37,911 bases of DNA from a virus (Duplodnaviria; Caudoviricetes): positions 1 to 37,911 of the IMG/VR virus record IMGVR_UViG_3300006872_000016; one strand, given 5' to 3'. Position numbers and translations under genes: made by a program. The first letter of the stretch is position 1, and the number at the start of each line of letters is the position of its first letter. Shown here piece after piece: positions 1 through 37,911 of the stretch. Below the pieces are notes generated by a model. That model was given only the letters and a program-made list of their open reading frames with translations, did not search any database and was not told the DNA's origin.

Positions 1-189
1 ATGGCGTCGGCGATCGAGCTCGCAGCCACCCGCCCGGACATGACGGTGATCAACGCGGACGGCGTCGAGGTGCCGGCCGCGCAGGCGCTCGCCGAGGCGG
101 ACGCGGCGATCCGGGAGGCGGAGCGCTCGCGCCTGGCGTCGACGCGCTGGCCGCGTGCGCGCTTCAACAGCTAGCCACCGTGGCGTGAG
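1..189 (+). CDS. C-terminal end of a large internal virion protein, probably the gene that starts at 35242 (partial, apparent frameshift near 125)
   Basis: Frame 1 reads ...RPDMTVINADGVEVPAAQALAEADAAIREAE and stops at 172-174. A shifted frame continues PGVDALAACALQQLATVA* to 189, which resembles the AxxAC-type C-terminus I recall for epsilon15-like internal proteins. Confidence 0.55.
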
Positions 190-11484: not shown

Positions 11485-12153
11485 TCAGATCCAATTGAAG
11501 GGGGCGCGGGTGTTGAGCAGCCGGGCACGGTCCCAGCAGAACCACGCATACTCGTGCATGTCGGTCGTGTCGCGCATCCGGTCGCCACACTCGGGGCACT
11601 CCCTGGTGCCGAGCGGCGCGGACGCGTCGCAGCTCTTGCGCTGGCACGTAGCGACGAACGCCGGCCGGCTCTCGAGGTAGTACACGTGCGTCGGCGGGAT
11701 GAGCCGCAGCAACGCGGAGCGCGGGCCCGCGGGCCAGCTCGCGCGGAGCAGAAGGCACACCGTCACGCACTCGCGCAGCAGCTTCTCGAGGAACTGCCCG
11801 GCCAGGTTAAACGGCGGATTGGTGACCGCGAGATCGAATGCCTGGAGGTGCGGCCCGGCGATCGTGTGCGGGCGCTCGAAGCTGACGCCCAGCTGCGGCA
11901 GCTCGAGGTAGTCGGCCCGGATCCAGCCCGGCCCGCCGCGCCTGAGCTCGACGCCGCGCACCACCCGCCGCAGCGACGTGATGCGGTCGGCCGCGCGGGC
12001 GATGATCGCGCCGTCGCCAGCGCAGGGCTCGAGGAACGAGCGCACGCGGAGCCAGTCGATCCGATCGAGGAACGCGTCGACCACCGGCCCGGGCGTCGGG
12101 TAGTCGTCGGACGCGCGCCGCTTGGTGCGCTTCTTGTCTGCTTGTTCGGTCAT
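11485..12153 (-). CDS. DNA amino (N6-adenine) methyltransferase
   Basis: DDYPTP, FLEPCAGDGAI (SAM binding), TNPPF (catalytic); CxxxxC...CxxC insert near the C-terminus. Confidence 0.85.
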   Translation of the reverse strand: MTEQADKKRTKRRASDDYPTPGPVVDAFLDRIDWLRVRSFLEPCAGDGAIIARAADRITSLRRVVRGVELRRGGPGWIRADYLELPQLGVSFERPHTIAGPHLQAFDLAVTNPPFNLAGQFLEKLLRECVTVCLLLRASWPAGPRSALLRLIPPTHVYYLESRPAFVATCQRKSCDASAPLGTRECPECGDRMRDTTDMHEYAWFCWDRARLLNTRAPFNWI

Positions 12154-12491
12154 GCTGTCGCGGTCTCCCATAGTGCCGCCCCTTTCCCCTGGAAGGCCGA
12201 GGCCTCGAGCCGGGTACTAGGCGATCCCCTGTTTTCCGTTTCCAGGGTCCGGGGCGATAGGCGGTCGATCGTTGCCCGGTTGGTTGTCCGTCCTTGTTGC
12301 GCGCTTTCCTTCCAGACAGCGACGCGCCGCGCTTCACTAGCTTTCGAGTGGAGATCGACCGGATCGGGATTGACAGGGCGGGAGCGTGCGAACCATGATC
12401 GAGGTCCGCGCCGTCTCGTGCTTCTTTCACGATTCGGTAACGCCCCGGCGAGGTGACACTCCCGGGGCGTTTTCATTTGTAGCCTACTCAA
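12150..12491 (-). CDS. possible hypothetical protein (113 aa)
   Basis: Fills the gap exactly, with 4-nt overlaps at both ends (TTGA, ATGA), but the sequence is not recognisable. Confidence 0.35.
   Translation of the reverse strand: MSRLQMKTPRECHLAGALPNRERSTRRRGPRSWFARSRPVNPDPVDLHSKASEARRVAVWKESAQQGRTTNRATIDRLSPRTLETENRGSPSTRLEASAFQGKGAALWETATA
12370..12399 (+). promoter_or_regulatory. sigma70-like promoter antisense to the left early operon
   Basis: TTGACA-N18-CATGAT. Confidence 0.55.
12405..12478 (+). ncRNA. putative ~70-nt antisense small RNA ending in an intrinsic terminator
   Basis: Follows the promoter; hairpin TCGTG-CTTCTTT-CACGA, then stem AACGCCCCGG/CCGGGGCGTT followed by TTCATTT. 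Confidence 0.5.
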
Positions 12492-13498
12492 GCGGGGCGG
12501 GTCAAGTTGGCGGCGCGGATGAACGTCGCCGCGACTTGCGGGACGATGGCGTTACCGTAGCCCCGCAGTCGTCCCACGCGGTTGGCAGCCCCATAAGCCA
12601 GCGGCTCAATGCCGGGTTCAATGCGCCGCGCTTTTCCGTCGGCGCAGGGGAGCCAGACGTAGTCGCTCCACGGGCCTGATAGCTCAGCGGCTTGCCCCGC
12701 GGGTGCTCGTCCCGCGGCGCGTCGAATTCCTCGGTCGCTGATTCCGATTTCCAGTCGCGCGCCGCTGGTGTCGCCCAGCCCGCCAAGTGCGCCGCGCAGT
12801 CCAAGTCCTGCGGCCCGCCCTTCCGCGCCACCTCGTTCATCGCTCCCTGGTCCGTCCGCACCGACTTGCTGCCGTCCGTCTGTCGAGCGGTCGGCCAGCC
12901 CGCGAACCTCGCCGCGTCCGTCAGCGTTGTGCCCGGATGCCGCCCGCTCTCGGTCGAGTAGCCCGCCGCGCCGCTGCTCGCGCTGTCCTGGCGCGTCGGC
13001 GTCGGCCGCCCACCACAGCCGCTGTCGGATGTGCGGCGCGCCGACGCTCGCAGCGCACAGATCGGCGGCCCCGACTGCATAGCCCAGACCTTCCAAGTCA
13101 GCGCGTATTCCGGCGAGCCAGTCACGTCCAGCGCGGCTCGCAACCTGTTCTCCAAAGACGACTGCAGGTGAGCACTCCGCAATGAGGCGTCGGAACTCGG
13201 GCCACAGGTGTCGTGGGTCGCGCTCGCCATCCCCGCGTCCGGCGACGCTGAAAGGCTGACAGGGGCAGCTCCCGGTCCACACGGGTCTATCATCGGGCCA
13301 GCCTGCGAGGCGCAGGGCGAGACTCCATCCGCCGATGCCGGCGAAAAAATGGCACTGGTTGAATCCTTCAAGGTCACGCGGGGATACCTCCGATATTGAT
13401 CTTTCGTCCACGACGCCAGGCGCAATGTGGCCGGCGTCTATCAGGGCGCGTAGCCACTGGGCGGCGAAAGGGTCGATCTCGTTGTAGTAGGCGGTCAT
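12488..13498 (-). CDS. C5-cytosine DNA methyltransferase, large (alpha) polypeptide
   Basis: FFAGIGG (motif I), SCPCQPFS (IV), FGEQV (VI), HIRQRLW (VIII), RLRGYGNAIV (X). Confidence 0.9.
   Translation of the reverse strand: MTAYYNEIDPFAAQWLRALIDAGHIAPGVVDERSISEVSPRDLEGFNQCHFFAGIGGWSLALRLAGWPDDRPVWTGSCPCQPFSVAGRGDGERDPRHLWPEFRRLIAECSPAVVFGEQVASRAGRDWLAGIRADLEGLGYAVGAADLCAASVGAPHIRQRLWWAADADAPGQREQRRGGLLDRERAASGHNADGRGEVRGLADRSTDGRQQVGADGPGSDERGGAEGRAAGLGLRGALGGLGDTSGARLEIGISDRGIRRAAGRAPAGQAAELSGPWSDYVWLPCADGKARRIEPGIEPLAYGAANRVGRLRGYGNAIVPQVAATFIRAANLTRPA
12502..13425 (-). CDS. alternative-frame (beta) polypeptide of the C5 methyltransferase; start uncertain (possibly 13230)
   Basis: Nested ORF with repeats RPTPTRQD / WPTARQTD / WATPAARDWK and LNPALSRWLMGLPTAW (motif IX-like), which the main frame lacks. 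Confidence 0.75.
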   Translation of the reverse strand: MRLASWTKDQYRRYPRVTLKDSTSAIFSPASADGVSPCASQAGPMIDPCGPGAAPVSLSASPDAGMASATHDTCGPSSDASLRSAHLQSSLENRLRAALDVTGSPEYALTWKVWAMQSGPPICALRASARRTSDSGCGGRPTPTRQDSASSGAAGYSTESGRHPGTTLTDAARFAGWPTARQTDGSKSVRTDQGAMNEVARKGGPQDLDCAAHLAGWATPAARDWKSESATEEFDAPRDEHPRGKPLSYQARGATTSGSPAPTEKRGALNPALSRWLMGLPTAWDDCGATVTPSSRKSRRRSSAPPT

Positions 13499-13692
13499 AG
13501 GTGGCGAATAGCATAGGCGGCCAGGTACGGGATCTCGCCCTTCCCGGCAAGCCAGTGCTGCACCGTTCTCCGCGTGACGCCGAGGCGCTCGGCGAGCTCG
13601 AGCGTGTCGATCTCCTGGGTCCGCATCAGCGTTGCCAGGCTGGCCGCTGTCATCTTCGCGCCGGCGCGCGCGTCGGGCTTTCTCTGGATCAT
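13495..13692 (-). CDS. Cro/XRE-like HTH regulator
   Basis: ELAERLGVTRRTVQHWLAG...IP; ATGA overlaps at both ends. Confidence 0.85.
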   Translation of the reverse strand: MIQRKPDARAGAKMTAASLATLMRTQEIDTLELAERLGVTRRTVQHWLAGKGEIPYLAAYAIRHL

Positions 13693-14216
13693 CGCCTTCC
13701 CTCCGAATCATCGCGCGTCGTCGCGCGCTCGTTGACTAGCCAGCCGTCGGCGGTCAATAGGTGCCCCGCGTCGCGCATGCGATCGAAGCGAGGATTGTCC
13801 GGGTGACCGTCCCGCAGCGCCCCGAAGTAGTAGCGCACCTGAGCCTCGATGCCTTCGCGCTGATCGTTCACCGTGCCGCGCAGGTTCGCGACCGCGTCGG
13901 CGTAGCGCAGCAGCGCGTCGCGATCGGTGTCCGGCGGATCCCCGTAGAACACGGCGAGCACGCGCTGCCACCACGTGCGGCGCGGCCTCGGCACCGGCGG
14001 CCGCGGGAGCGCGTCGGAGATCGACGAGCCGAGCACGCCGATCCGGTTCGCTACCTCCATCAGCAGGCGCGCCTCGCACTCGTTCGCGAGTCGCATGAAC
14101 TCCTGGCGGCGGCGGCCGGCCAGGCTGGCCGCCGGCGGCACCATGCGTGGATGGTCGGGGCACTCGCCCCCCATCCGGTTAAACCCGCAGCGCGGGCAGT
14201 TGTCGATCATCGCCAT
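13689..14216 (-). CDS. hypothetical protein with N-terminal CxxC...CxxH
   Basis: MAMIDNCPRCG...ECPDH; GGGGG SD-like; coupled to the HTH gene. Confidence 0.6.
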   Translation of the reverse strand: MAMIDNCPRCGFNRMGGECPDHPRMVPPAASLAGRRRQEFMRLANECEARLLMEVANRIGVLGSSISDALPRPPVPRPRRTWWQRVLAVFYGDPPDTDRDALLRYADAVANLRGTVNDQREGIEAQVRYYFGALRDGHPDNPRFDRMRDAGHLLTADGWLVNERATTRDDSEGRR

Positions 14217-14473: not shown

Positions 14474-14820
14474 ATCCATTTCGCGCGCTCCTGTGCGTTG
14501 AGCGCCGCGGCGATCGCCTTGATCTCCGCGGCGACTTTCGGGTCGATGGTCCGCGCCCGGTAGGGCGGGACGGTAGCCTTGAACCGGTACGGCGAGTGCG
14601 TGATCACCGCCGGCCGGCCTGCGAGATTCGCCTCGAGCTCGGCGCCGGCGAGGGTCTCGAAGTCGCCGGCCTGGTAGAGAATGCCGAGCGCGGCGTCGAG
14701 CTCGCCCGGGCCCTGCAGCTGTAGCTTGTACGGCCGCGGGTCGGCCTCGAAGCTCGCCGCACCATCGGTGCGGGCGAACATCGCGATCAGGTTGGTCGAT
14801 GTGTAGGTGATCACGTTCAC
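14470..14820 (-). CDS. hypothetical protein
   Basis: GGAGG SD and GTGA overlap. Confidence 0.6.
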   Translation of the reverse strand: MNVITYTSTNLIAMFARTDGAASFEADPRPYKLQLQGPGELDAALGILYQAGDFETLAGAELEANLAGRPAVITHSPYRFKATVPPYRARTIDPKVAAEIKAIAAALNAQERAKWI

Positions 14821-15401
14821 GCCTCCACCGCTTTCGGGAACACCCGGCCCGCGGCGTTGTATCCATAGCCGTCGTCGCCGATGAACTGCACCCGCGCCGC
14901 GGTCGGCGAGGGCTTCACCACCAGCCGATCCGAGAGCTTCGCGAGCGTCTGGTATATCTGCTCCTGCCAACACCAGTTGTTCGACCATCTGTCGCCGATC
15001 ATCACCATGGTCCCGGCTTTGCCGTTCCTGAACTGCTCGACGGTGCACACCTCGGCCGGCGCGTATTTCTTCGTGAGCTTGCCGATCGCCCGGACGATCA
15101 TCGCGTCCGAATAGCTCCGCTCGCAGAAGATGAAGTCGGCGCCGAAGCTCGCCCGCTCGCCGTCCACCATGTAGTAGTTGCTCCCCTTGTAATCCTTCAT
15201 CCCGTCGAAGTAGCTGCCGGCGAAGGTGTCGGCGATCGCTTCGACCTGGGCCCGATTCGGGCCGTCGAGCCAGCCGACCCGCACCGAGGCGCCGCCGCTG
15301 TAGGTGCTGGTCCGTACCGAAAACTTCACGTCGGGGAATGCTTCCTTGAGCGCCTTGCGGATGAGCCCGGCGGTCTCGGCGGGCTTGAAATACTTGGTCA
15401 T
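14817..15401 (-). CDS. LPD29-domain protein (first gene of the left early operon)
   Basis: ETA.LIRKALKEAFPDVKFSVR...YSGG.S..V.W.DGP...FDGM.DY...FGADFIF..R.YS; GGAG SD. Confidence 0.8.
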   Translation of the reverse strand: MTKYFKPAETAGLIRKALKEAFPDVKFSVRTSTYSGGASVRVGWLDGPNRAQVEAIADTFAGSYFDGMKDYKGSNYYMVDGERASFGADFIFCERSYSDAMIVRAIGKLTKKYAPAEVCTVEQFRNGKAGTMVMIGDRWSNNWCWQEQIYQTLAKLSDRLVVKPSPTAARVQFIGDDGYGYNAAGRVFPKAVEA

Positions 15402-15443
15402 TCGTCGGTCTCCAGTCGACGCGGGAGAATTCCCGCAGCGCCT

Positions 15444-15471
15444 ATTATCCACACTCCGAGCGGCCGCGCAA
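15444..15471 (-). promoter_or_regulatory. leftward early promoter
   Basis: TTGCGC-N16-GATAAT on the minus strand. Confidence 0.6.
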
Positions 15472-15472
15472 C

Positions 15473-15497
15473 TATTTCGCGAAAATATTTCGCAAAA
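15473..15497. promoter_or_regulatory. operator-like palindromic/tandem site between divergent promoters
   Basis: TATTTCGCGAAAA-TATTTCGCAAAA: perfect palindrome TTTCGCGAAA plus a 13-bp-period repeat in an AT-rich island. Confidence 0.6.
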
Positions 15498-15501
15498 GGT
15501 A

Positions 15502-15529
15502 TTGACGCCGGGCGCGCGGTCTGGATAAT
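15502..15529 (+). promoter_or_regulatory. rightward early promoter
   Basis: TTGACG-N16-GATAAT. Confidence 0.7.
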
Positions 15530-15627
15530 TGGCCTCGAAGGCAACGACATCCCTTTCTAGTCGGCATTGGCGGGCGTCGCGTGCGGCGCCCTGCAATGCG
15601 GATTCCCCGCAGACAGGAGACCGAGAT

Positions 15628-15939
15628 ATGAGAAAGAGCATCACCATTCAAACCGCGAAGGGCTGCGCATGGCGCGGCGTCTACCTCAACATCGCCGGCC
15701 GGCAGGCTTTCGGCGCGACTCTCGATCCGCACTACGGAGTGCGCCCCGCTTTGACTCTGGCGGTCCTCGGACGCAGCGCGCGCGTTCCTATGCCCTATGT
15801 TCCGTGGCGCTGGGTGGCGAAACATGGTGGCTACGGCTTGCCTCTCATGTGGTTGTATCGGCTTTCGCGCGCGTTCTGGCGTGGCGTAGACGGGCGCTAT
15901 GGCTGGGGGACGGCGGCGAGCCGCGGGCCGCAGTCATGA
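15628..15939 (+). CDS. hypothetical protein (first gene of the right early operon)
   Basis: AGGAG SD; ATGA overlap with erf. Confidence 0.65.
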   Translation: MRKSITIQTAKGCAWRGVYLNIAGRQAFGATLDPHYGVRPALTLAVLGRSARVPMPYVPWRWVAKHGGYGLPLMWLYRLSRAFWRGVDGRYGWGTAASRGPQS

Positions 15940-16895
15940 GCGAGATAATCGTTAAAGAGGCGATCCTGTCGGTGCGCGAGGAGGACGAGATCGCGCCGGC
16001 GGCCGTGGCGCCGCTGGTGGCGAGTGGAAAGCCGCGCGCGCGGGCCGACTCCGTCGTCGCACGCGCCTCGAGCGAGACCATGGGGATCGCGCTCCTGATC
16101 GAGAAGGCGATCGAGTCCGGCCGCCCCGTGGCCGAGCTCGTGCAGGCATTCGAGAAGGCGCTCGAGATCCAGGCGCGGCAGCAGTTCGCGCAGGCGATGC
16201 ACCAGTTCCGCGCCAGCATGCCGGCCGTGCCCAAGGCGCGATGGGCGAACATGGAGAAGCGCGACGGGAGCGGCGCGTGGGGCTTCGCCTATGCGCCGCT
16301 CGACGTGATCGAGGAGTACGCCCGCCCGGTGCTGGACGCGTGCGGCCTGTCCTACCGTTGGGTGCAGGAGCCGCCGCAGGGCGGGATCATCACCACGATC
16401 TGCATCGTGCGGCACGTCGGCGGGCATGAGGAGCGGACGCCCTACTACTCGCCGATCGGGGACAACAAGGCGATCTCGACCGCGCAAAATTGGGCGGTCG
16501 CTAACTCGTTCAACAAGCGGCAATCCCTGGTCGCCGCGCTCGGCATCGTCACGACCGACTATTTCGACGACGAGGAGGCGCTCGCGCGAGCTCGCGAGGC
16601 CAACAAGGGCGCAACCGCGAAGCAGATCCGCGACGAGGTGCAGGCGCCGCGCCGGCGGCCGGACGCGGAGCCGCCCCGCCAGGCGCCCGCCAGGCCGCCG
16701 GCCGCGCCACCACCTGCGGCGCCGCCTGGCGAGTTCGCCAGCGACCGCCAGGTCGAGAGCATCAAGCGCCGGGCCGACTACGCCGGGATCAGCGAGGCGG
16801 AGGTGTGCCGCCGCTTCGAGCTCGAGACCTTCGCCAAGATCCCGCGCGGCAAGGTCAACGCGATCTTGGCCTACCTTGAATCCCTCGCGGGTTAG
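15936..16895 (+). CDS. erf: ERF-family single-strand annealing protein
   Basis: F.YAPLD.I....RPVL...GL, RHVGGH, AQ......SF.KRQSL.AALGI. Confidence 0.85.
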   Translation: MSEIIVKEAILSVREEDEIAPAAVAPLVASGKPRARADSVVARASSETMGIALLIEKAIESGRPVAELVQAFEKALEIQARQQFAQAMHQFRASMPAVPKARWANMEKRDGSGAWGFAYAPLDVIEEYARPVLDACGLSYRWVQEPPQGGIITTICIVRHVGGHEERTPYYSPIGDNKAISTAQNWAVANSFNKRQSLVAALGIVTTDYFDDEEALARAREANKGATAKQIRDEVQAPRRRPDAEPPRQAPARPPAAPPPAAPPGEFASDRQVESIKRRADYAGISEAEVCRRFELETFAKIPRGKVNAILAYLESLAG

Positions 16896-32746: not shown

Positions 32747-35245
32747 ATGGCGACGATTGATCCGGGTCCGTTCGGGAACTACACCGCGCCGGCCGTCCGG
32801 CCGGGCCGCTCGGCGCGCCCCGTGCCGGAGGCCTTCGACACGACCGGCGGGATACAGGAGCTCGCGCGCGGCGCGGCCATCGCCAGCGACATCGGCGCCA
32901 ACGTGGCCGCACAGCAGCGCCGCGAGCAGGAGATCGCCGCGGAGCGTGCCCGCCGGGAGGCCGAGCAGGCCGCGCGCGTCGAGGAGGCCACCCGCGCCCG
33001 GCGCGACCAGATCCAGCTTGGCGAGGAGGTCGCGCGCAGGGCGCAGTCGATCCTCGATGACGACTCGATCCCTGGCGACCAGAAGGAGGCCAGGCTCGAC
33101 GAGTTCGTTACCCAACGCCGCGCCGCGCTCGAGCCCACCTACAAGATCCCCGACCTACTCGGCGCGCAGCAGGCGAACATCGACGAGATCAGTGTGCGTG
33201 CGCGCGCCGGGATCCGCGAGGGGATCACCCGCCAGAACCGGGCGAAGGTCTCGGCCAACGTCGCGCAGTCGATCGAGTCGCTCGGGCGCCAGGCGCTCAG
33301 CGCCGGCGATGCTGACCCCTACATTGACCAGGCCTTCAAGATCATCGACGAAAGCGCCGCGGCGGCCGGGTGGGACGCGCTCAACGTCGAGAAGCAGAAG
33401 CAGGCGGTCTCCGAGAGCTGGACCGAGACCGTGGTCGCGCAGCGCGTCAACGACGATCCCGCCGGCGCGCTCGAGGCGCTCGACGGCGACGCGTACCCGC
33501 GGCTCGACCCCAAGGTCCGCATTGCGCTGCGCGGCCAGGCCGAGGCCGAGCTCGAGCGCCGGGCGAACCGCGCCAGGATCGAGGCGGATGCGCGCGAGGC
33601 GCAGGCCGGCCGGGCGATCGCCAGGCTCGGCGACATTTACCAGCAGGGGCTACAGCCTGACGCGCAGTGGGTCGCGTCGACGGCGGCCCTGGCCACCGGC
33701 ACGATCTACGAGCAGGACATACAAGCCATGCAGGCGGCCGCCGCGGACCGCGCGCGCTTTGCGTCCGCTCCGATTGCCGACCAGCAGCGGGAGGTGGAAG
33801 CCTTGCGCGCGCGCTACACCGATCCGGCGCAGGGCGTGAAGCAGGGGCAGGACTGGGATTACCGGTGGCGCGAGCAGCAGCTCGCCAACACGCAGCAGGA
33901 CATACGCGCCCGCGGTGGTCTCATGGCGGCCGCGGCGCGCCGCGTGATCGATCTCCCGCCGCTCGACGTCGACACGCCCGAGGCGCTGGCCGAGGGACTG
34001 AGCGCCAGGCGCGAGGCGGCGGCGCAGGCGAGCGCCTGGGCGGGCCAGCCGGTCGGGCTTCTCACGCCGTCCGAGCTGCGCGCGTTCTCCGAGAACCTCA
34101 AGCGCACCCCGGCCGACCAGCAGGCCGCAACGATCCACGGGTTCGCGCTCGCCGTCGGCGACCCGCAGGAGTTCCGGCAGATCATGGCCGAGCTCGCGCC
34201 CAGCAACGGCGCCGCGGCGAGCGCCGGCCGGTTGCTGGTCGACAAGGCGCCAGGTGCGCGCGACGCGGCCGAGCTGATCCTCAAGGGCGAGGCCTACCTC
34301 AACCCGCCAGGCGAGGGCGCCAAGCCGCTCGTGCGCCTCCCCAATGCCGACGCGATCGCGCGCAAGTTCGACGACCTGACGGGCGAGGCCTACGTCGGCA
34401 GCGCGCGCGTGCGCGGCATGGATCTGGACAACGCGCGCCGGGTCTATGCGGCGCTCTCGGCGCAGGAGGGCGACTTCACGCAAGATCCGCAGGACGTCGA
34501 CGGAAAGCGGATGCAGCGCGCGATCGAGATCGCCACCGGCGGGATCGGCGAGTACGCCGGGGCGGCCGTGGTGCTGCCGCGCGGCATGAGCGAGGACGAG
34601 CTCACCAGCCGGGTGCAGGACCGGCTGCTCGAGCTCAACCGCACCGGCGGGCTGATCACGCGGTTCAACGATTCGCAGCTGCTCGACTTGCAGATCGAAA
34701 ACGCGCCCCGCGGCTACTACGTGAAGCAGGGCGGGGCGTATCTCCTCGATCGAAAGGGCTACAAGGTCAACATCGATCCGCGCTCCGCCCCGATCGACTG
34801 GCAGGCGCCGCTCGCCGCAGCTGACCCAGAGTTCGACGTGCCGCCGGCGCCGGCGCCCGACTGGCAGCCCAACCCCAACGATCTACGCCCCGACGGCACG
34901 CAGAAGGGCCGCGGCTACTTCGGCCCGCTCAGGACGCCGGACGGCGGGACCATGACGGAGCTGTCGGTCGGGTTCAACATCGACGGCCGCGAGGTCGACG
35001 TGCCCGCCCTGGTGCCGACGCTGACCCGCGGCGAGGTGCGCGCGGTGCTCAACGCGAAGCAGGGGCAGCGCCTTCCGCAGTCTGTCTACGTGAAGGCCGA
35101 GGCCTTCGCGCGCGACCGCCTGGCGCGCGGCCTCTCGCCGTACGCCCAGCCCGAGGAGGAGGGCCAGTTCCAGCCGGCGCCGAATCCGCGCAAGCGCCTG
35201 CAGTGGGGGCCGTACGGGTTCCGGTTCGAGGACGTCGCGCCGTGA
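32747..35245 (+). CDS. internal virion / ejection protein (832 aa) with an appended C-terminal domain
   Basis: Long helical ORF in the ejection module; GAGG SD. Confidence 0.8.
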   Translation: MATIDPGPFGNYTAPAVRPGRSARPVPEAFDTTGGIQELARGAAIASDIGANVAAQQRREQEIAAERARREAEQAARVEEATRARRDQIQLGEEVARRAQSILDDDSIPGDQKEARLDEFVTQRRAALEPTYKIPDLLGAQQANIDEISVRARAGIREGITRQNRAKVSANVAQSIESLGRQALSAGDADPYIDQAFKIIDESAAAAGWDALNVEKQKQAVSESWTETVVAQRVNDDPAGALEALDGDAYPRLDPKVRIALRGQAEAELERRANRARIEADAREAQAGRAIARLGDIYQQGLQPDAQWVASTAALATGTIYEQDIQAMQAAAADRARFASAPIADQQREVEALRARYTDPAQGVKQGQDWDYRWREQQLANTQQDIRARGGLMAAAARRVIDLPPLDVDTPEALAEGLSARREAAAQASAWAGQPVGLLTPSELRAFSENLKRTPADQQAATIHGFALAVGDPQEFRQIMAELAPSNGAAASAGRLLVDKAPGARDAAELILKGEAYLNPPGEGAKPLVRLPNADAIARKFDDLTGEAYVGSARVRGMDLDNARRVYAALSAQEGDFTQDPQDVDGKRMQRAIEIATGGIGEYAGAAVVLPRGMSEDELTSRVQDRLLELNRTGGLITRFNDSQLLDLQIENAPRGYYVKQGGAYLLDRKGYKVNIDPRSAPIDWQAPLAAADPEFDVPPAPAPDWQPNPNDLRPDGTQKGRGYFGPLRTPDGGTMTELSVGFNIDGREVDVPALVPTLTRGEVRAVLNAKQGQRLPQSVYVKAEAFARDRLARGLSPYAQPEEEGQFQPAPNPRKRLQWGPYGFRFEDVAP

Positions 35246-37911
35246 GCTCGTTTGAGTTCTTCCCCGAGGAGCGCCCGCTCGCGATCGAGAGTGAGGCCGA
35301 CGCGCTCCTGCCGGGCGACATCGACGTGCCGGCGTTCCGCGGCATGGGGCACGAGGCGTGGGCCGCGCCGGCGCGCGGCATGGTGCGACTCGGCGAGGCG
35401 GCCGGCCTGGCCGCGGGCGCGATCAACGGGCCGATCGATTCCTTGCTCGGCACCGATCTGCAGGATCAGGCGTTCGGCTCCGTCGACCGCATGCGCGCGG
35501 TCCGCGAGTCGATGGTGCTCCGCCCGGGCGAGATCGGCGTCGCCGCTCGAGTACTCGGCGGCCTGGGCGAGTTCGTCACGCAGCTCGCCGTCGCGCGCTC
35601 GCCTGGCGCGCTCGCTTCCACCATTCTCGGCACGTCGTCCGACCTGGCGGTCGCCGGCGTCGACCCGCGGACGGCGGTGCAGGCTGGCACGCTCGAGGGC
35701 GCCGGCCTGGCGGTCGGTCTCAGGATCCCGACGCTGGGCGCCACCCTGGCGCAGCGTGTGGGGCTCGGCGCCGGGGCCAACGTGGCGCAAGGGGTGATCA
35801 CCCGCGGCGCAGTGGGCGAGCTCCTGCGAAGCGAGGGCGCGCCCGCCGGCGTGGCCGAGGGCTATCAAGCGTGGGACGGCGAGGCCTTGATCGTCGACGC
35901 GCTCGCCGGCGCCGTGTTCGGCGGCGTCGATCACTGGAGCGCGCGCCCGGACGTCGCGGCGCTGAATGACCACGCGCACCGCGTCGCGCGTACCGCGCCG
36001 GGCGTGCCGCAGACTGCCGACGCGCTCGACGCGCACGCCCAGGCGCTCGATCAGGCGCTCGCCCAGGTGCTCGCCGATGAGGCGGTCACGGTGCAGGCGC
36101 CGCCGGGGCGGTTTCAGGACGACGGGCGCGCCGCCCAGGCGCAGGCCGACACCGAGGCGATCGTCACGTCGGATCGCGTCGCGGGCCTCCTCGCGCGCCA
36201 CGTGCCGGATCTGCAGAAGGCCGACGAGATCCTCCCGCCCGAATCGGCCGCGGCGCTGCGCGGGCTCTACGAGACCGCCGTCGCCAACTTCGACGACTTC
36301 AATACCGAGCTACGCACGATCGCCAAGGAGATCGGCGCGCGATTGGTGATCGGGCCGATCAAGCTCGCCGGCAAGGCGTCGGCCAAGATTGCCGGCGACT
36401 ACAAGGGCGACGCCTCGCAGATCGCCGATCTGTTGCGGTCGACGTTTGAGCTGCCCACGCTCGAGGGCGCGGCCGCGGCCGTTGACCGGGTGCGCTCGAG
36501 CTACCCGGTAGTCGAGGCGCGATCGCGCAACTGGCTGGACCCGGGCATTGAGACCGCGGACGGCTACCGTGACGCGAAATTTGTGATCGAGTACCGCGGC
36601 AACCTCGCCGAGATACAGGTCAACATTCCGGAAATGCTCGAGGCCAAGAGCGGCCGCGGGCATGAGCTCTACAAAGAGCGCGAAGCGATCATCAAGGGCT
36701 ATCAGCTCGCCGGCCGAAAGGCTCCGACGCTGGCGGAGCGCAAGGAGATCCGCCGTATCACGGCGGAAATGCAACAGCTTTACGGCGCGGCCTGGGAGAA
36801 GTTCCTCGCGCGCTCGCGGAAGAAAGCGAGCGTGACGGCACTCCCGCCGCGCAAGGACTCAACCGGGAAGGGGCGCCCGCCGGGCACGTCCCAGGCGACC
36901 ACGGCGTCGGGGCCGACGCCTGCGCCTACTGACACGGGGATCCCGTCGACGTCCCAAAACATCGTGTCGGGATCGAATGATTCGATCGGAGCGAACATAG
37001 ATGCGGCCTCCGCAGGTATTGTAGCCGAAGCGCCCGCGGCACTCCAGGGCACCGACGGTGCGGCCGCGGTGGTGGTGACGGAGCGCGGCCTCGAGGTGCC
37101 GGTGCGTTATCGGCTGGTCGACGCGTCCGCGCTGGTCACGTCCCACAATGACGCGCTCGAGGTCGATCCGCGCTTCCCGCCCGAGCTCCAGCCGCGCGAC
37201 CGGTCCCGCGCCGCCAGCGACCAGCAGATCGCCAAGATCGAGAATGCGATCCGGCCCGAGCTCCTGGGCGAGTCGGTCAAGGCCAGCGACGGCGCGCCGA
37301 TCGTCGGCGCCGACGGCGTCGTCGAGTCCGGCAACGCTCGCACCATTGCGCTGCGGCGCGCCTACGCGCGGAACAAGGCAGGCATCTATCGCGAGTGGCT
37401 ACGGGCCAACGCGGCCCGCTTTGGTCTCGACCCGGCCGCCGTCGACGGCATGGCGGCGCCGGTGCTGGTGCGCGTGGCGCAGGGCGCGCGCGACCGCGCG
37501 GAGTTCGCCCGCCAGGCCAACGAGTCGGCGATCGCCACCATGTCGCCCGGCGAGCTCGCGCGCGCCGACGCGCAGCGGCTCGGCAGCCTCGAGGGGCTGG
37601 CGACCAACGAGAACGGATCGATCAACCTTGCGCAGTCGCGCGCCGTGGTCGACGCGTTCCTGCGCGACGTGGTGTCGCCGGCTGATCTCAACACCACCAC
37701 CACGGCCAAGGGCGGGCTGTCGCAGTTCGGGCTGTCGCGGCTGCGCAATGCGATTTTCGCCCGGGCCTACGGCGATACGGAGCTGTTGCAGGCGCTCACG
37801 GAGTCGCTCGACTCGAACGTCAAGAACGTGCTCGCCGGCATGGTCCGCGCCGCGCCGGAGGTGGCGCGCCTGCGCGATCTGCAGGCCGAGGGCGCGCGCC
37901 ATCCGATCGCC
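35242..37911 (+). CDS. polyvalent internal virion protein: structural N-domain + RelA/SpoT synthetase domain + ddrB-like ParB domain (runs off the window end; absent from the ORF track)
   Basis: GTGA-coupled start; own translation found no stop. GPIK...K...DYKGDASQIADLLR...GYRD...EIQVN...HELY (~36340-36680); ELQPRDRSR...DGAPIV...VVESGNAR (~37180-37340). Confidence 0.88.
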   Translation, partial: MSSFEFFPEERPLAIESEADALLPGDIDVPAFRGMGHEAWAAPARGMVRLGEAAGLAAGAINGPIDSLLGTDLQDQAFGSVDRMRAVRESMVLRPGEIGVAARVLGGLGEFVTQLAVARSPGALASTILGTSSDLAVAGVDPRTAVQAGTLEGAGLAVGLRIPTLGATLAQRVGLGAGANVAQGVITRGAVGELLRSEGAPAGVAEGYQAWDGEALIVDALAGAVFGGVDHWSARPDVAALNDHAHRVARTAPGVPQTADALDAHAQALDQALAQVLADEAVTVQAPPGRFQDDGRAAQAQADTEAIVTSDRVAGLLARHVPDLQKADEILPPESAAALRGLYETAVANFDDFNTELRTIAKEIGARLVIGPIKLAGKASAKIAGDYKGDASQIADLLRSTFELPTLEGAAAAVDRVRSSYPVVEARSRNWLDPGIETADGYRDAKFVIEYRGNLAEIQVNIPEMLEAKSGRGHELYKEREAIIKGYQLAGRKAPTLAERKEIRRITAEMQQLYGAAWEKFLARSRKKASVTALPPRKDSTGKGRPPGTSQATTASGPTPAPTDTGIPSTSQNIVSGSNDSIGANIDAASAGIVAEAPAALQGTDGAAAVVVTERGLEVPVRYRLVDASALVTSHNDALEVDPRFPPELQPRDRSRAASDQQIAKIENAIRPELLGESVKASDGAPIVGADGVVESGNARTIALRRAYARNKAGIYREWLRANAARFGLDPAAVDGMAAPVLVRVAQGARDRAEFARQANESAIATMSPGELARADAQRLGSLEGLATNENGSINLAQSRAVVDAFLRDVVSPADLNTTTTAKGGLSQFGLSRLRNAIFARAYGDTELLQALTESLDSNVKNVLAGMVRAAPEVARLRDLQAEGARHPIA
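36780..36998 (-). CDS. nested antisense gene (72 aa), candidate antitoxin/immunity protein
   Basis: MFAPIESFDPDTMFWDVDGIPVSV...AWDVPGGRPFP...; GGAGG 8 nt upstream (37007-37011); TACAAT -10 box (37018-37023). Confidence 0.7.
   Translation of the reverse strand: MFAPIESFDPDTMFWDVDGIPVSVGAGVGPDAVVAWDVPGGRPFPVESLRGGSAVTLAFFRERARNFSQAAP

Follow-up and report, generated by a model that had tools for sequence, protein, structure and literature searches.

How can a toxic domain sit in the middle of a phage structural gene, with no space behind it for an immunity gene? The question is raised by the IMG/VR record IMGVR_UViG_3300006872_000016 (Duplodnaviria; Caudoviricetes), a linear sequence of 37,911 bases with an estimated completeness of 95%, which was analysed over its whole length and is called the window below. 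Close to its right end, a long gene of the internal-virion cluster encodes a polyvalent protein that harbors a RelA/SpoT-type synthetase domain, and the opposite strand of the linker that follows this domain contains most of a 72-codon open reading frame (ORF). This ORF is almost certainly a real gene, and its product is very probably the immunity protein of this synthetase. The elements on which the argument depends are the following.

36214..36813, plus strand: RelA/SpoT-type synthetase domain, nearest to Tas1, recognized by profile, fold and catalytic residues
36814..37086, plus strand: sense linker rich in Ser, Thr, Pro and Gly (S/T/P/G), opposite which the promoter and the greater part of the nested gene lie
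36780..36998, minus strand: nested antisense gene, from an ATG at 36998-36996 to a stop at 36782-36780, for a 72-residue protein predicted to give immunity to the synthetase
37007..37011, minus strand: GGAGG, the Shine-Dalgarno motif for the nested gene, ending 8 nucleotides ahead of the ATG
37018..37023, minus strand: TACAAT, a -10 box without a TG extension in the predicted antisense promoter; its end is 19 nucleotides ahead of the ATG

The nested antisense gene

An earlier sequence-only reading of this DNA had described the 72-residue ORF, quoting peptides from it, with a GGAGG motif at 8 nucleotides, a TACAAT box and a weak -35 element. The ORF was recovered with these peptides at 36998..36780 on the minus strand, and the two motifs at the stated places; a scan of positions 36000-37500 with the consensus promoter gave 0 sites, as a weak -35 would lead one to expect. 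The same reading placed the ORF opposite exactly the linker, which holds for most of the gene and fails for its last ~11 codons, which overlap the final helix of the synthetase domain. It was right that the sense and antisense frames have their third positions in common, and that the overlapped linker is of low complexity: S/T/P/G make up 35 of the 73 overlapped sense codons versus 25% of the whole sense ORF, and over 25 nested loci the share is 42% versus 25%.

Open antisense frames of this length are common in the window, where 128 antisense ATGs lie in the same frame within ten long genes and 24 of them open at least 72 codons, so that an open frame is by itself no evidence. A Shine-Dalgarno motif precedes one of these 24 long frames, and that one is the nested gene. 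Its product matches no family in Pfam, PHROG or NCBIfam.

Conservation of the nested frame

Loci related to the window were collected through the synthetase, 31 from viruses and four from bacterial genome bins, and the whole set, window included, was reduced to 27 at 90% identity. An antisense ORF in the same frame follows the synthetase in all 27 distinct loci, so the frame is kept open in homologues, as the sequence-only reading required, and it is fully nested in 25 of them; an early end of the sense gene leaves an overlap of just 22% in L015 and 60% in L024. These ORFs end 44-60 codons past the EIQ motif of the synthetase (96 in L040). Their start is ATG in 25 of the 27 and is preceded by a Shine-Dalgarno motif in 26, and a TANNNT box ends exactly 19 nucleotides ahead of it in 24, with a TG extension in 16. 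Among 770 control ATGs, antisense and in the same frame elsewhere in the same genes, 37 have a ribosome site, 39 a -10 box and one has both.

A tree built from 31 synthetases puts L015 and L024, the partly nested loci, on an open fork and gives no ancestral state for nesting. The identities among synthetases and among small proteins are correlated (Mantel r 0.72), which reflects shared history and is not counted as co-evolution. Within the 27 sense ORFs, a search for a second nested cassette gave one unconvincing candidate, and tblastn with one family member found no copy of the small gene in cultured phages or plasmids. Of 21 RNA sequencing runs, none contained half of the sequence words of the query, and among the pieces listed from three true RNA runs none covers the small gene, a result with no bearing on transcription.

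A class-wide search of 400 genomes added two synthetase loci, L125 and L124. In the first, found independently, a nested ORF (L125:2079-2303, minus strand) of identical phase and start signals stands behind a divergent synthetase. Its product is far more divergent, and comparison with the small-protein family by profile gave a probability below 3%, so that a common family is not supported. No nested antisense ORF was seen behind the synthetase of L124, and scanning viruses with the synthetase of L125 returned no relative. The nested arrangement is not universal among such synthetases: the phage PHB04 and three relatives carry a co-directional small gene instead of a nested antisense one. For this 69-residue product too, a common family is not supported, the profile probabilities being below 3%. 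At the locus from PHB04, a cultured phage (L119:5086-7351), the related synthetase ends a portal-adjacent gene and is followed by the 69-residue gene and an HD_4 hydrolase; the genes are annotated as hypothetical or generic, and the arrangement looks of the Apk2/IapK/Aph1 type. A Photobacterium replicon (L121) carries two related synthetase genes at a distance of ~1 kb, and the small-protein profiles match nothing there.

Selection on the two frames

As the two proteins are coupled through a frame with shared third positions, conservation alone says little about the antisense product, and substitutions were therefore counted at four-fold-degenerate third positions of the sense frame. The sites came from 13 disjoint pairs of nested loci, taken from a set of 45, with L015, L024 and L040 omitted. 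Inside the small gene, transversions were found at 9 of 158 sites where the antisense codon is constrained versus 55 of 204 where it is free (p 6e-8, this and the other p values being approximate, as the pairs share ancestry). The rate was reduced in 11 of the 13 pairs, and the effect persisted when stop-prone codons were excluded (4/96 versus 41/169). In a control region that encodes the synthetase only, there was no difference (97/343 versus 71/243, p 0.85).

The sequence-only reading had proposed looking for selection in both frames, and the reverse test on the sense linker also detected it (transversions 7/89 versus 41/169, p 0.001), so that the linker is not pure filler. The small gene is thus under protein-level selection, with some constraint on the sense linker as well.

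Orphan, duplicated and fused copies of the small gene

A profile of the small protein matched 73 of 503 candidate called proteins, none of them with a Pfam family; some may duplicate the nested ORFs, called here on short contigs. A search for loci with the small protein gave 73, which reduce to 41 distinct ones. In 25 of these (4 shared with the set collected through the synthetase) the small gene is fully nested in the same phase behind a full synthetase, one lies behind a synthetase remnant and 15 have no synthetase, which contradicts the expectation that homologues would always be antisense behind the enzyme. The 15 comprise 11 intact orphan or fused copies, 2 weak partial matches and 2 copies cut by contig ends. 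Stops interrupt the opposite frame within the intact small gene at 7 of the 12 orphan or remnant loci.

In L083:2276-3223, a three-part ORF, an N-terminal part of no assigned family is joined to the small domain and to a (p)ppApp hydrolase of the Aph1 type. Among solved structures the hydrolase part is matched best by 7smg, itself a (p)ppApp hydrolase (E-value 4.9e-40, the next being 6e-11). This fusion, a single case, links the small domain to alarmone defence independently of any model. In L089 the small gene follows a gene for an HD_4 hydrolase, and in L080 it lies near one.

Three of the 73 called proteins are tandem duplicates of the small domain; the proteins P0011, P0012, P0025 and P0068 present tandem duplications and also a fusion with another small domain. 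Orphan copies at L080:76-276 and 2501-2707 and at L075:2501-2704 have decayed synthetase ends. Between the two copies of L080 lie the HD_4 hydrolase and a Gp49/HTH toxin-antitoxin-like pair, and the copy of L075 is near an integrase gene. A search of the ESM Atlas with the small protein gave no usable feature match, its structure rows being sub-threshold and derived from a poor model.

The synthetase domain

The assignment of the domain to RelA/SpoT synthetases, made earlier from the sequence, is upheld by its similarity to Tas1 and not by Pfam, since RelA_SpoT (PF04607) has no match in the window domain; among 24 proteins scanned, this family scored above the cut-off in L024 and below it in five others. 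A profile built from 25 of the 27 domains (L012, with an undetermined base, and L040, with a long insertion, were omitted) matches Tas1 with an E-value of 2.6e-23, versus 2e-6 for Rel. The structural model of the domain has a predicted local distance difference test (pLDDT) of 97, and its best Foldseek match is 6ox6_A (Tas1; E-value 7.5e-9), followed by SaEAS, with RelP and Rel also matched; model and Foldseek search together place the domain in the SYNTH fold. Counted from position 36214, the residues K50, K58, D72, R75, T77, Y118, E133, Q135 and H150 are invariant in all 25 aligned synthetases, and alignment to Tas1 and Rel shows that the catalytic Asp, the Glu-x-Gln motif, the G-loop Tyr and the basic donor-site residues are present.

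Predicted binding of the small protein

In its model (pLDDT 78.5) the small protein has two helices and a three-stranded sheet, and no solved fold matches it significantly. Co-folding of the synthetase with it gave 0.88 in three runs versus 0.01 for the best of three controls, a test that the sequence-only reading had asked for. The runs share at least 98% of their contacts, with a partner pLDDT of at least 89. The mark used in judging such runs is reached by 116 of 157 solved pairs and 2 of 215 mismatched pairs, counts that apply only approximately to the alignments used here.

The predicted interface takes in K58 and Y118, the latter aligned with the G-loop tyrosine, and D72, R75 and E133 are not among its listed residues. 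Predicted contacts lie at residues 24-33 and 54-56 of the small protein and at 113-118 and 160-171 of the enzyme. The small protein is therefore predicted by the model to bind across the G-loop tyrosine, plugging the acceptor side of the enzyme. Blocking of the acceptor side has been described as the mode of (p)ppApp-synthetase inhibitors, unlike that of inhibitors of tRNA-modifying toxins (PMC11782079; here and below, cited papers are used for the parts of their text that were available).

The carrier gene and its surroundings

The synthetase belongs to a gene that spans the two ends of the record.

35242..37911, plus strand: polyvalent protein gene, in the internal-virion cluster, with its 3' end open
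1..188, plus strand: C-terminal end of the polyvalent gene, matching residues 1008-1069 of P0003
35461..36207, plus strand: epsilon15 gp16-related N-terminal region (phrog_1145, E-value 4e-21)
37087..37476, plus strand: DdrB-like ParB domain, a domain of phage polyvalent proteins, after the linker (PF18763, E-value 7.7e-38)

A full-length relative, P0003, has 1069 residues and is 97% identical; its residues 1-889 map to window positions 35242-37908, and residues 1008-1069 to positions 1-185 in two frames. The window contig is thus opened within the polyvalent gene, with ~118 codons absent. Near 124-126 there is a shift of reading frame relative to P0003, either an assembly error or genuine. 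The chain contains several domains of biological conflict (DdrB-ParB and RelA/SpoT) and its gene lies among virion genes, both of which are features of polyvalent proteins.

PHROG matches identify portal, capsid, tail and internal-virion genes in the window, in the order of phage epsilon15, and the polyvalent gene has phrog_418, phrog_992 and phrog_684 as neighbours, an order that matches gp14, gp15, gp16 and gp17. The N-terminal region is 36.5% identical to epsilon15 gp16 by tblastn (E-value 2e-13), and the gp16 gene sits, in RefSeq, between the genes of a head protein and of a virion structural protein. Epsilon15 is said in a review (PMC8954989) to eject internal virion proteins during infection, but the gene numbers and sizes in its available text disagree with RefSeq, so that it gives no warrant for the ejection of gp16.

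The G+C content of the cassette is 65-67%, versus 76% and 73% in its flanks, and the carriers vary among gp16-like, portal-like and ParB/methylase polyvalent proteins, mostly of a virion-associated type. Both features are consistent with a cassette that may move as a unit. In the near-identical relative P0004, ~140 additional residues stand directly past the antisense promoter, which suggests that the site may receive further insertions. Elsewhere in the window there are a standalone LPD29 polyvalent-associated domain (14817-15647, minus strand), two DNA methyltransferases (12488-13711 and 11485-12171, minus strand) and an ERF recombinase domain (15567-16895, plus strand).

A model for the cassette and its alternatives

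The idea of a toxin-immunity cassette whose immunity gene is on the other strand, already put forward from the sequence, is supported by frame conservation, selection and co-folding. The model proposed here, which is considered probable as a whole, is that a synthetase-immunity cassette was inserted in frame in an epsilon15-gp16-like virion protein, and that the toxin is ejected from the virion to give an alarmone pulse. Delivery of the enzyme from the virion is itself held to be reasonably probable, and the synthetase is likely toxic to the cell. The nested gene would have its own promoter for the host polymerase, so that its expression would begin shortly after the DNA enters the cell, before the late virion genes, and the large polyvalent protein would be produced in a blocked state. 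The enzyme would then be packaged as part of the virion protein and ejected unblocked into the next cell, where an alarmone pulse, most likely of (p)ppApp, would stall the new host until fresh immunity protein accumulates. Cells already carrying a cognate or orphan immunity gene would escape the pulse. Nesting would allow enzyme and antidote to enter the middle of a structural gene in frame, as a single unit.

Several points weigh against this model. Where a locus offered several candidate starts for the nested gene, the one with the highest signal score was taken, a choice biased towards signals; L040, with no Shine-Dalgarno motif and a different spacing, is a doubtful member, and within the L030-L045 group identity to the small protein of the window is only 17-30%. 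Tis1, the known partner of Tas1, has the highest Foldseek probability for the small protein but ranks fifth by E-value (3.9; TM score 0.40), and a second fold method puts it first of 48,161 chains with a Z score of 3.8 that is tied with three unrelated chains (root-mean-square deviation 4.8, 59 residues aligned). Tis1 is absent from the sequence matches of either profile up to an E-value of 10, a search that short divergent proteins may escape. Since the Tas1-Tis1 complex has been solved (6ox6), the co-folding result may show likeness rather than binding. On the side of the carrier, epsilon15 gp16 is a hypothetical protein in RefSeq.

Further points of this kind concern the enzyme. The window synthetase differs from the family majority at R54K, E57A, K71A and N124V and, given these four departures, may be weaker. 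Apk enzymes, which make (p)ppApp, have the signatures R-x-T at syn2 and G-x-N at syn3, and long RSH (RelA/SpoT homologue) enzymes have S-x-H at syn3 (PMC12226406). The window domain has the first (R75-S-T77), but its syn3 is D120-x-K122, with Asp in 23 of 25 rows, and not the G-x-N of Tas1 and Apk2, so it is not classed as an Apk member. Some related exported synthetases yield (p)ppGpp only (PMC12691689). The enzyme is given about an even chance of making (p)ppApp as its main product; pyrophosphorylation of tRNA, offered in the sequence-only reading, is rated less likely than alarmone synthesis.

It could be argued that the enzyme is a mild regulator, acting through (p)ppGpp or tRNA modification, or is partly inactive, and that the small protein tunes or chaperones it. 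A syn3 that fits neither the Apk nor the long-RSH signature and the four departures of the window enzyme would suit this, as would the proposal of Iyer et al. (2017; PMC5512222) that the host is reprogrammed in an alarmone-like manner. It is nevertheless unlikely: orphan copies that persist without an enzyme, next to alarmone hydrolases or fused to one, are what protection against a harmful product would lead one to expect, and the predicted binding side is that of inhibitors of (p)ppApp toxins and not of tRNA toxins (PMC11782079). The same toxin-immunity pair might also act in the producing cell or lysogen, without virion delivery, in abortive infection or against superinfection, like the toxSAS enzyme PhRel, which in phage Phrann guards against superinfection (PMC7229694). 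The four loci from bacterial genome bins agree with this, and a host-type promoter would work in a lysogen. The toxin, however, lies in a late structural gene cluster behind an epsilon15-gp16-like N-terminus, no sensor domain is seen, the carriers differ and yet are mostly of a virion-associated type, and no tyrosine integrase was found in the window genome (95% complete), where superinfection exclusion, also suggested by the sequence-only reading, is thus unsupported as a function of a lysogen. This alternative is regarded as rather improbable.

The remaining explanation takes the antisense ORF as a shadow of a conserved sense linker, with a promoter that yields a regulatory antisense RNA only. 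The tight coupling of sense and antisense residues speaks for it, as do the 24 of 128 antisense ATGs of the window that open at least as many codons and the constraint on the sense linker itself. However, the constraint at sense-synonymous sites tracks the antisense code solely within the ORF, also when stop-prone codons are left out, and free-standing, orphan, duplicated and fused copies of the small gene exist. On these sequence comparisons the explanation seems already largely refuted, and it is given hardly any weight.

Relation to known systems

By profile and fold, the nearest solved synthetase is Tas1 (Apk1), which with Tis1 forms a type VI secretion toxin-immunity pair of Pseudomonas aeruginosa (6ox6). 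Tis1 and the nested protein are similar in size (76 versus 72 residues), Tis1 is a weak top fold match, and the acceptor-side binding predicted here resembles that described for Tis1 (PMC11782079). Unlike Tas1, which is a secretion effector, the synthetase of the window is an internal domain encoded by a phage virion-cluster gene; its partner is nested antisense, its syn3 is D-x-K versus G-x-N, and no sequence similarity to Tis1 is detectable.

A second relative is the MuF-Apk2/IapK/Aph1 system of temperate phages, in which a head-associated carrier bears the synthetase, a small immunity protein binds it and a hydrolase provides a second immunity (PMC12226406, PMC10083569). The Aph1-type hydrolase fused to the small domain in L083 recalls this system. 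MuF-Apk2, however, has a C-terminal toxin followed by separate immunity genes, whereas here the toxin is internal, the immunity gene is on the opposite strand with a predicted promoter, and there is no MuF N-terminal domain. The toxSAS systems (FaRel, FaRel2, PhRel, PhRel2 and CapRel; PMC7229694) also pair a synthetase with an adjacent small protein partner and are often phage-borne. Their described form is an operon of two or three genes, each small and standalone, whereas here the synthetase is a domain of a large structural protein and its partner is nested and convergent, on the opposite strand in all 27 loci, so that the two are not co-transcribed as in a toxSAS operon.

Polyvalent proteins with RelA/SpoT and DdrB-ParB domains, of the same domain content and in the same virion-gene position, were described by Iyer et al. 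(2017; PMC5512222), whose main text, in its available parts, mentions no antisense, opposite-strand or overlapping partner. Among the papers available to the literature searches, none was found to describe a phage synthetase whose partner is nested antisense to it, and the text of a 2025 RelE/ParE paper does not describe antisense antitoxins. The toxin-immunity logic is already known from Tas1/Tis1 and MuF-Apk2/IapK; novelty appears to lie in the protein family and in a cassette that is inserted in frame and uses both strands.

Significance

The cassette offers an answer to the question posed at the outset, since its predicted immunity gene is placed on the other strand. It is also a natural case of two proteins selected in opposite frames over many phage lineages, it brings to light an unannotated protein family, and it is missed by ordinary annotation. 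It also yields a search rule for other polyvalent domains: the strand opposite an S/T/P/G-rich linker should be examined for an ATG with a Shine-Dalgarno motif and a -10 box. Tentatively, nested antisense immunity genes with their own promoters might be a general design for toxic domains within virion-delivered polyvalent proteins. The low-complexity linkers behind such domains would then hide unannotated immunity genes, captured elsewhere as orphans to disarm virions, and an ejected synthetase would stun the host before phage expression until the nested gene ends the pulse. As the domain can be cloned alongside its predicted antidote, the role of virion-associated alarmone synthetases becomes directly testable.

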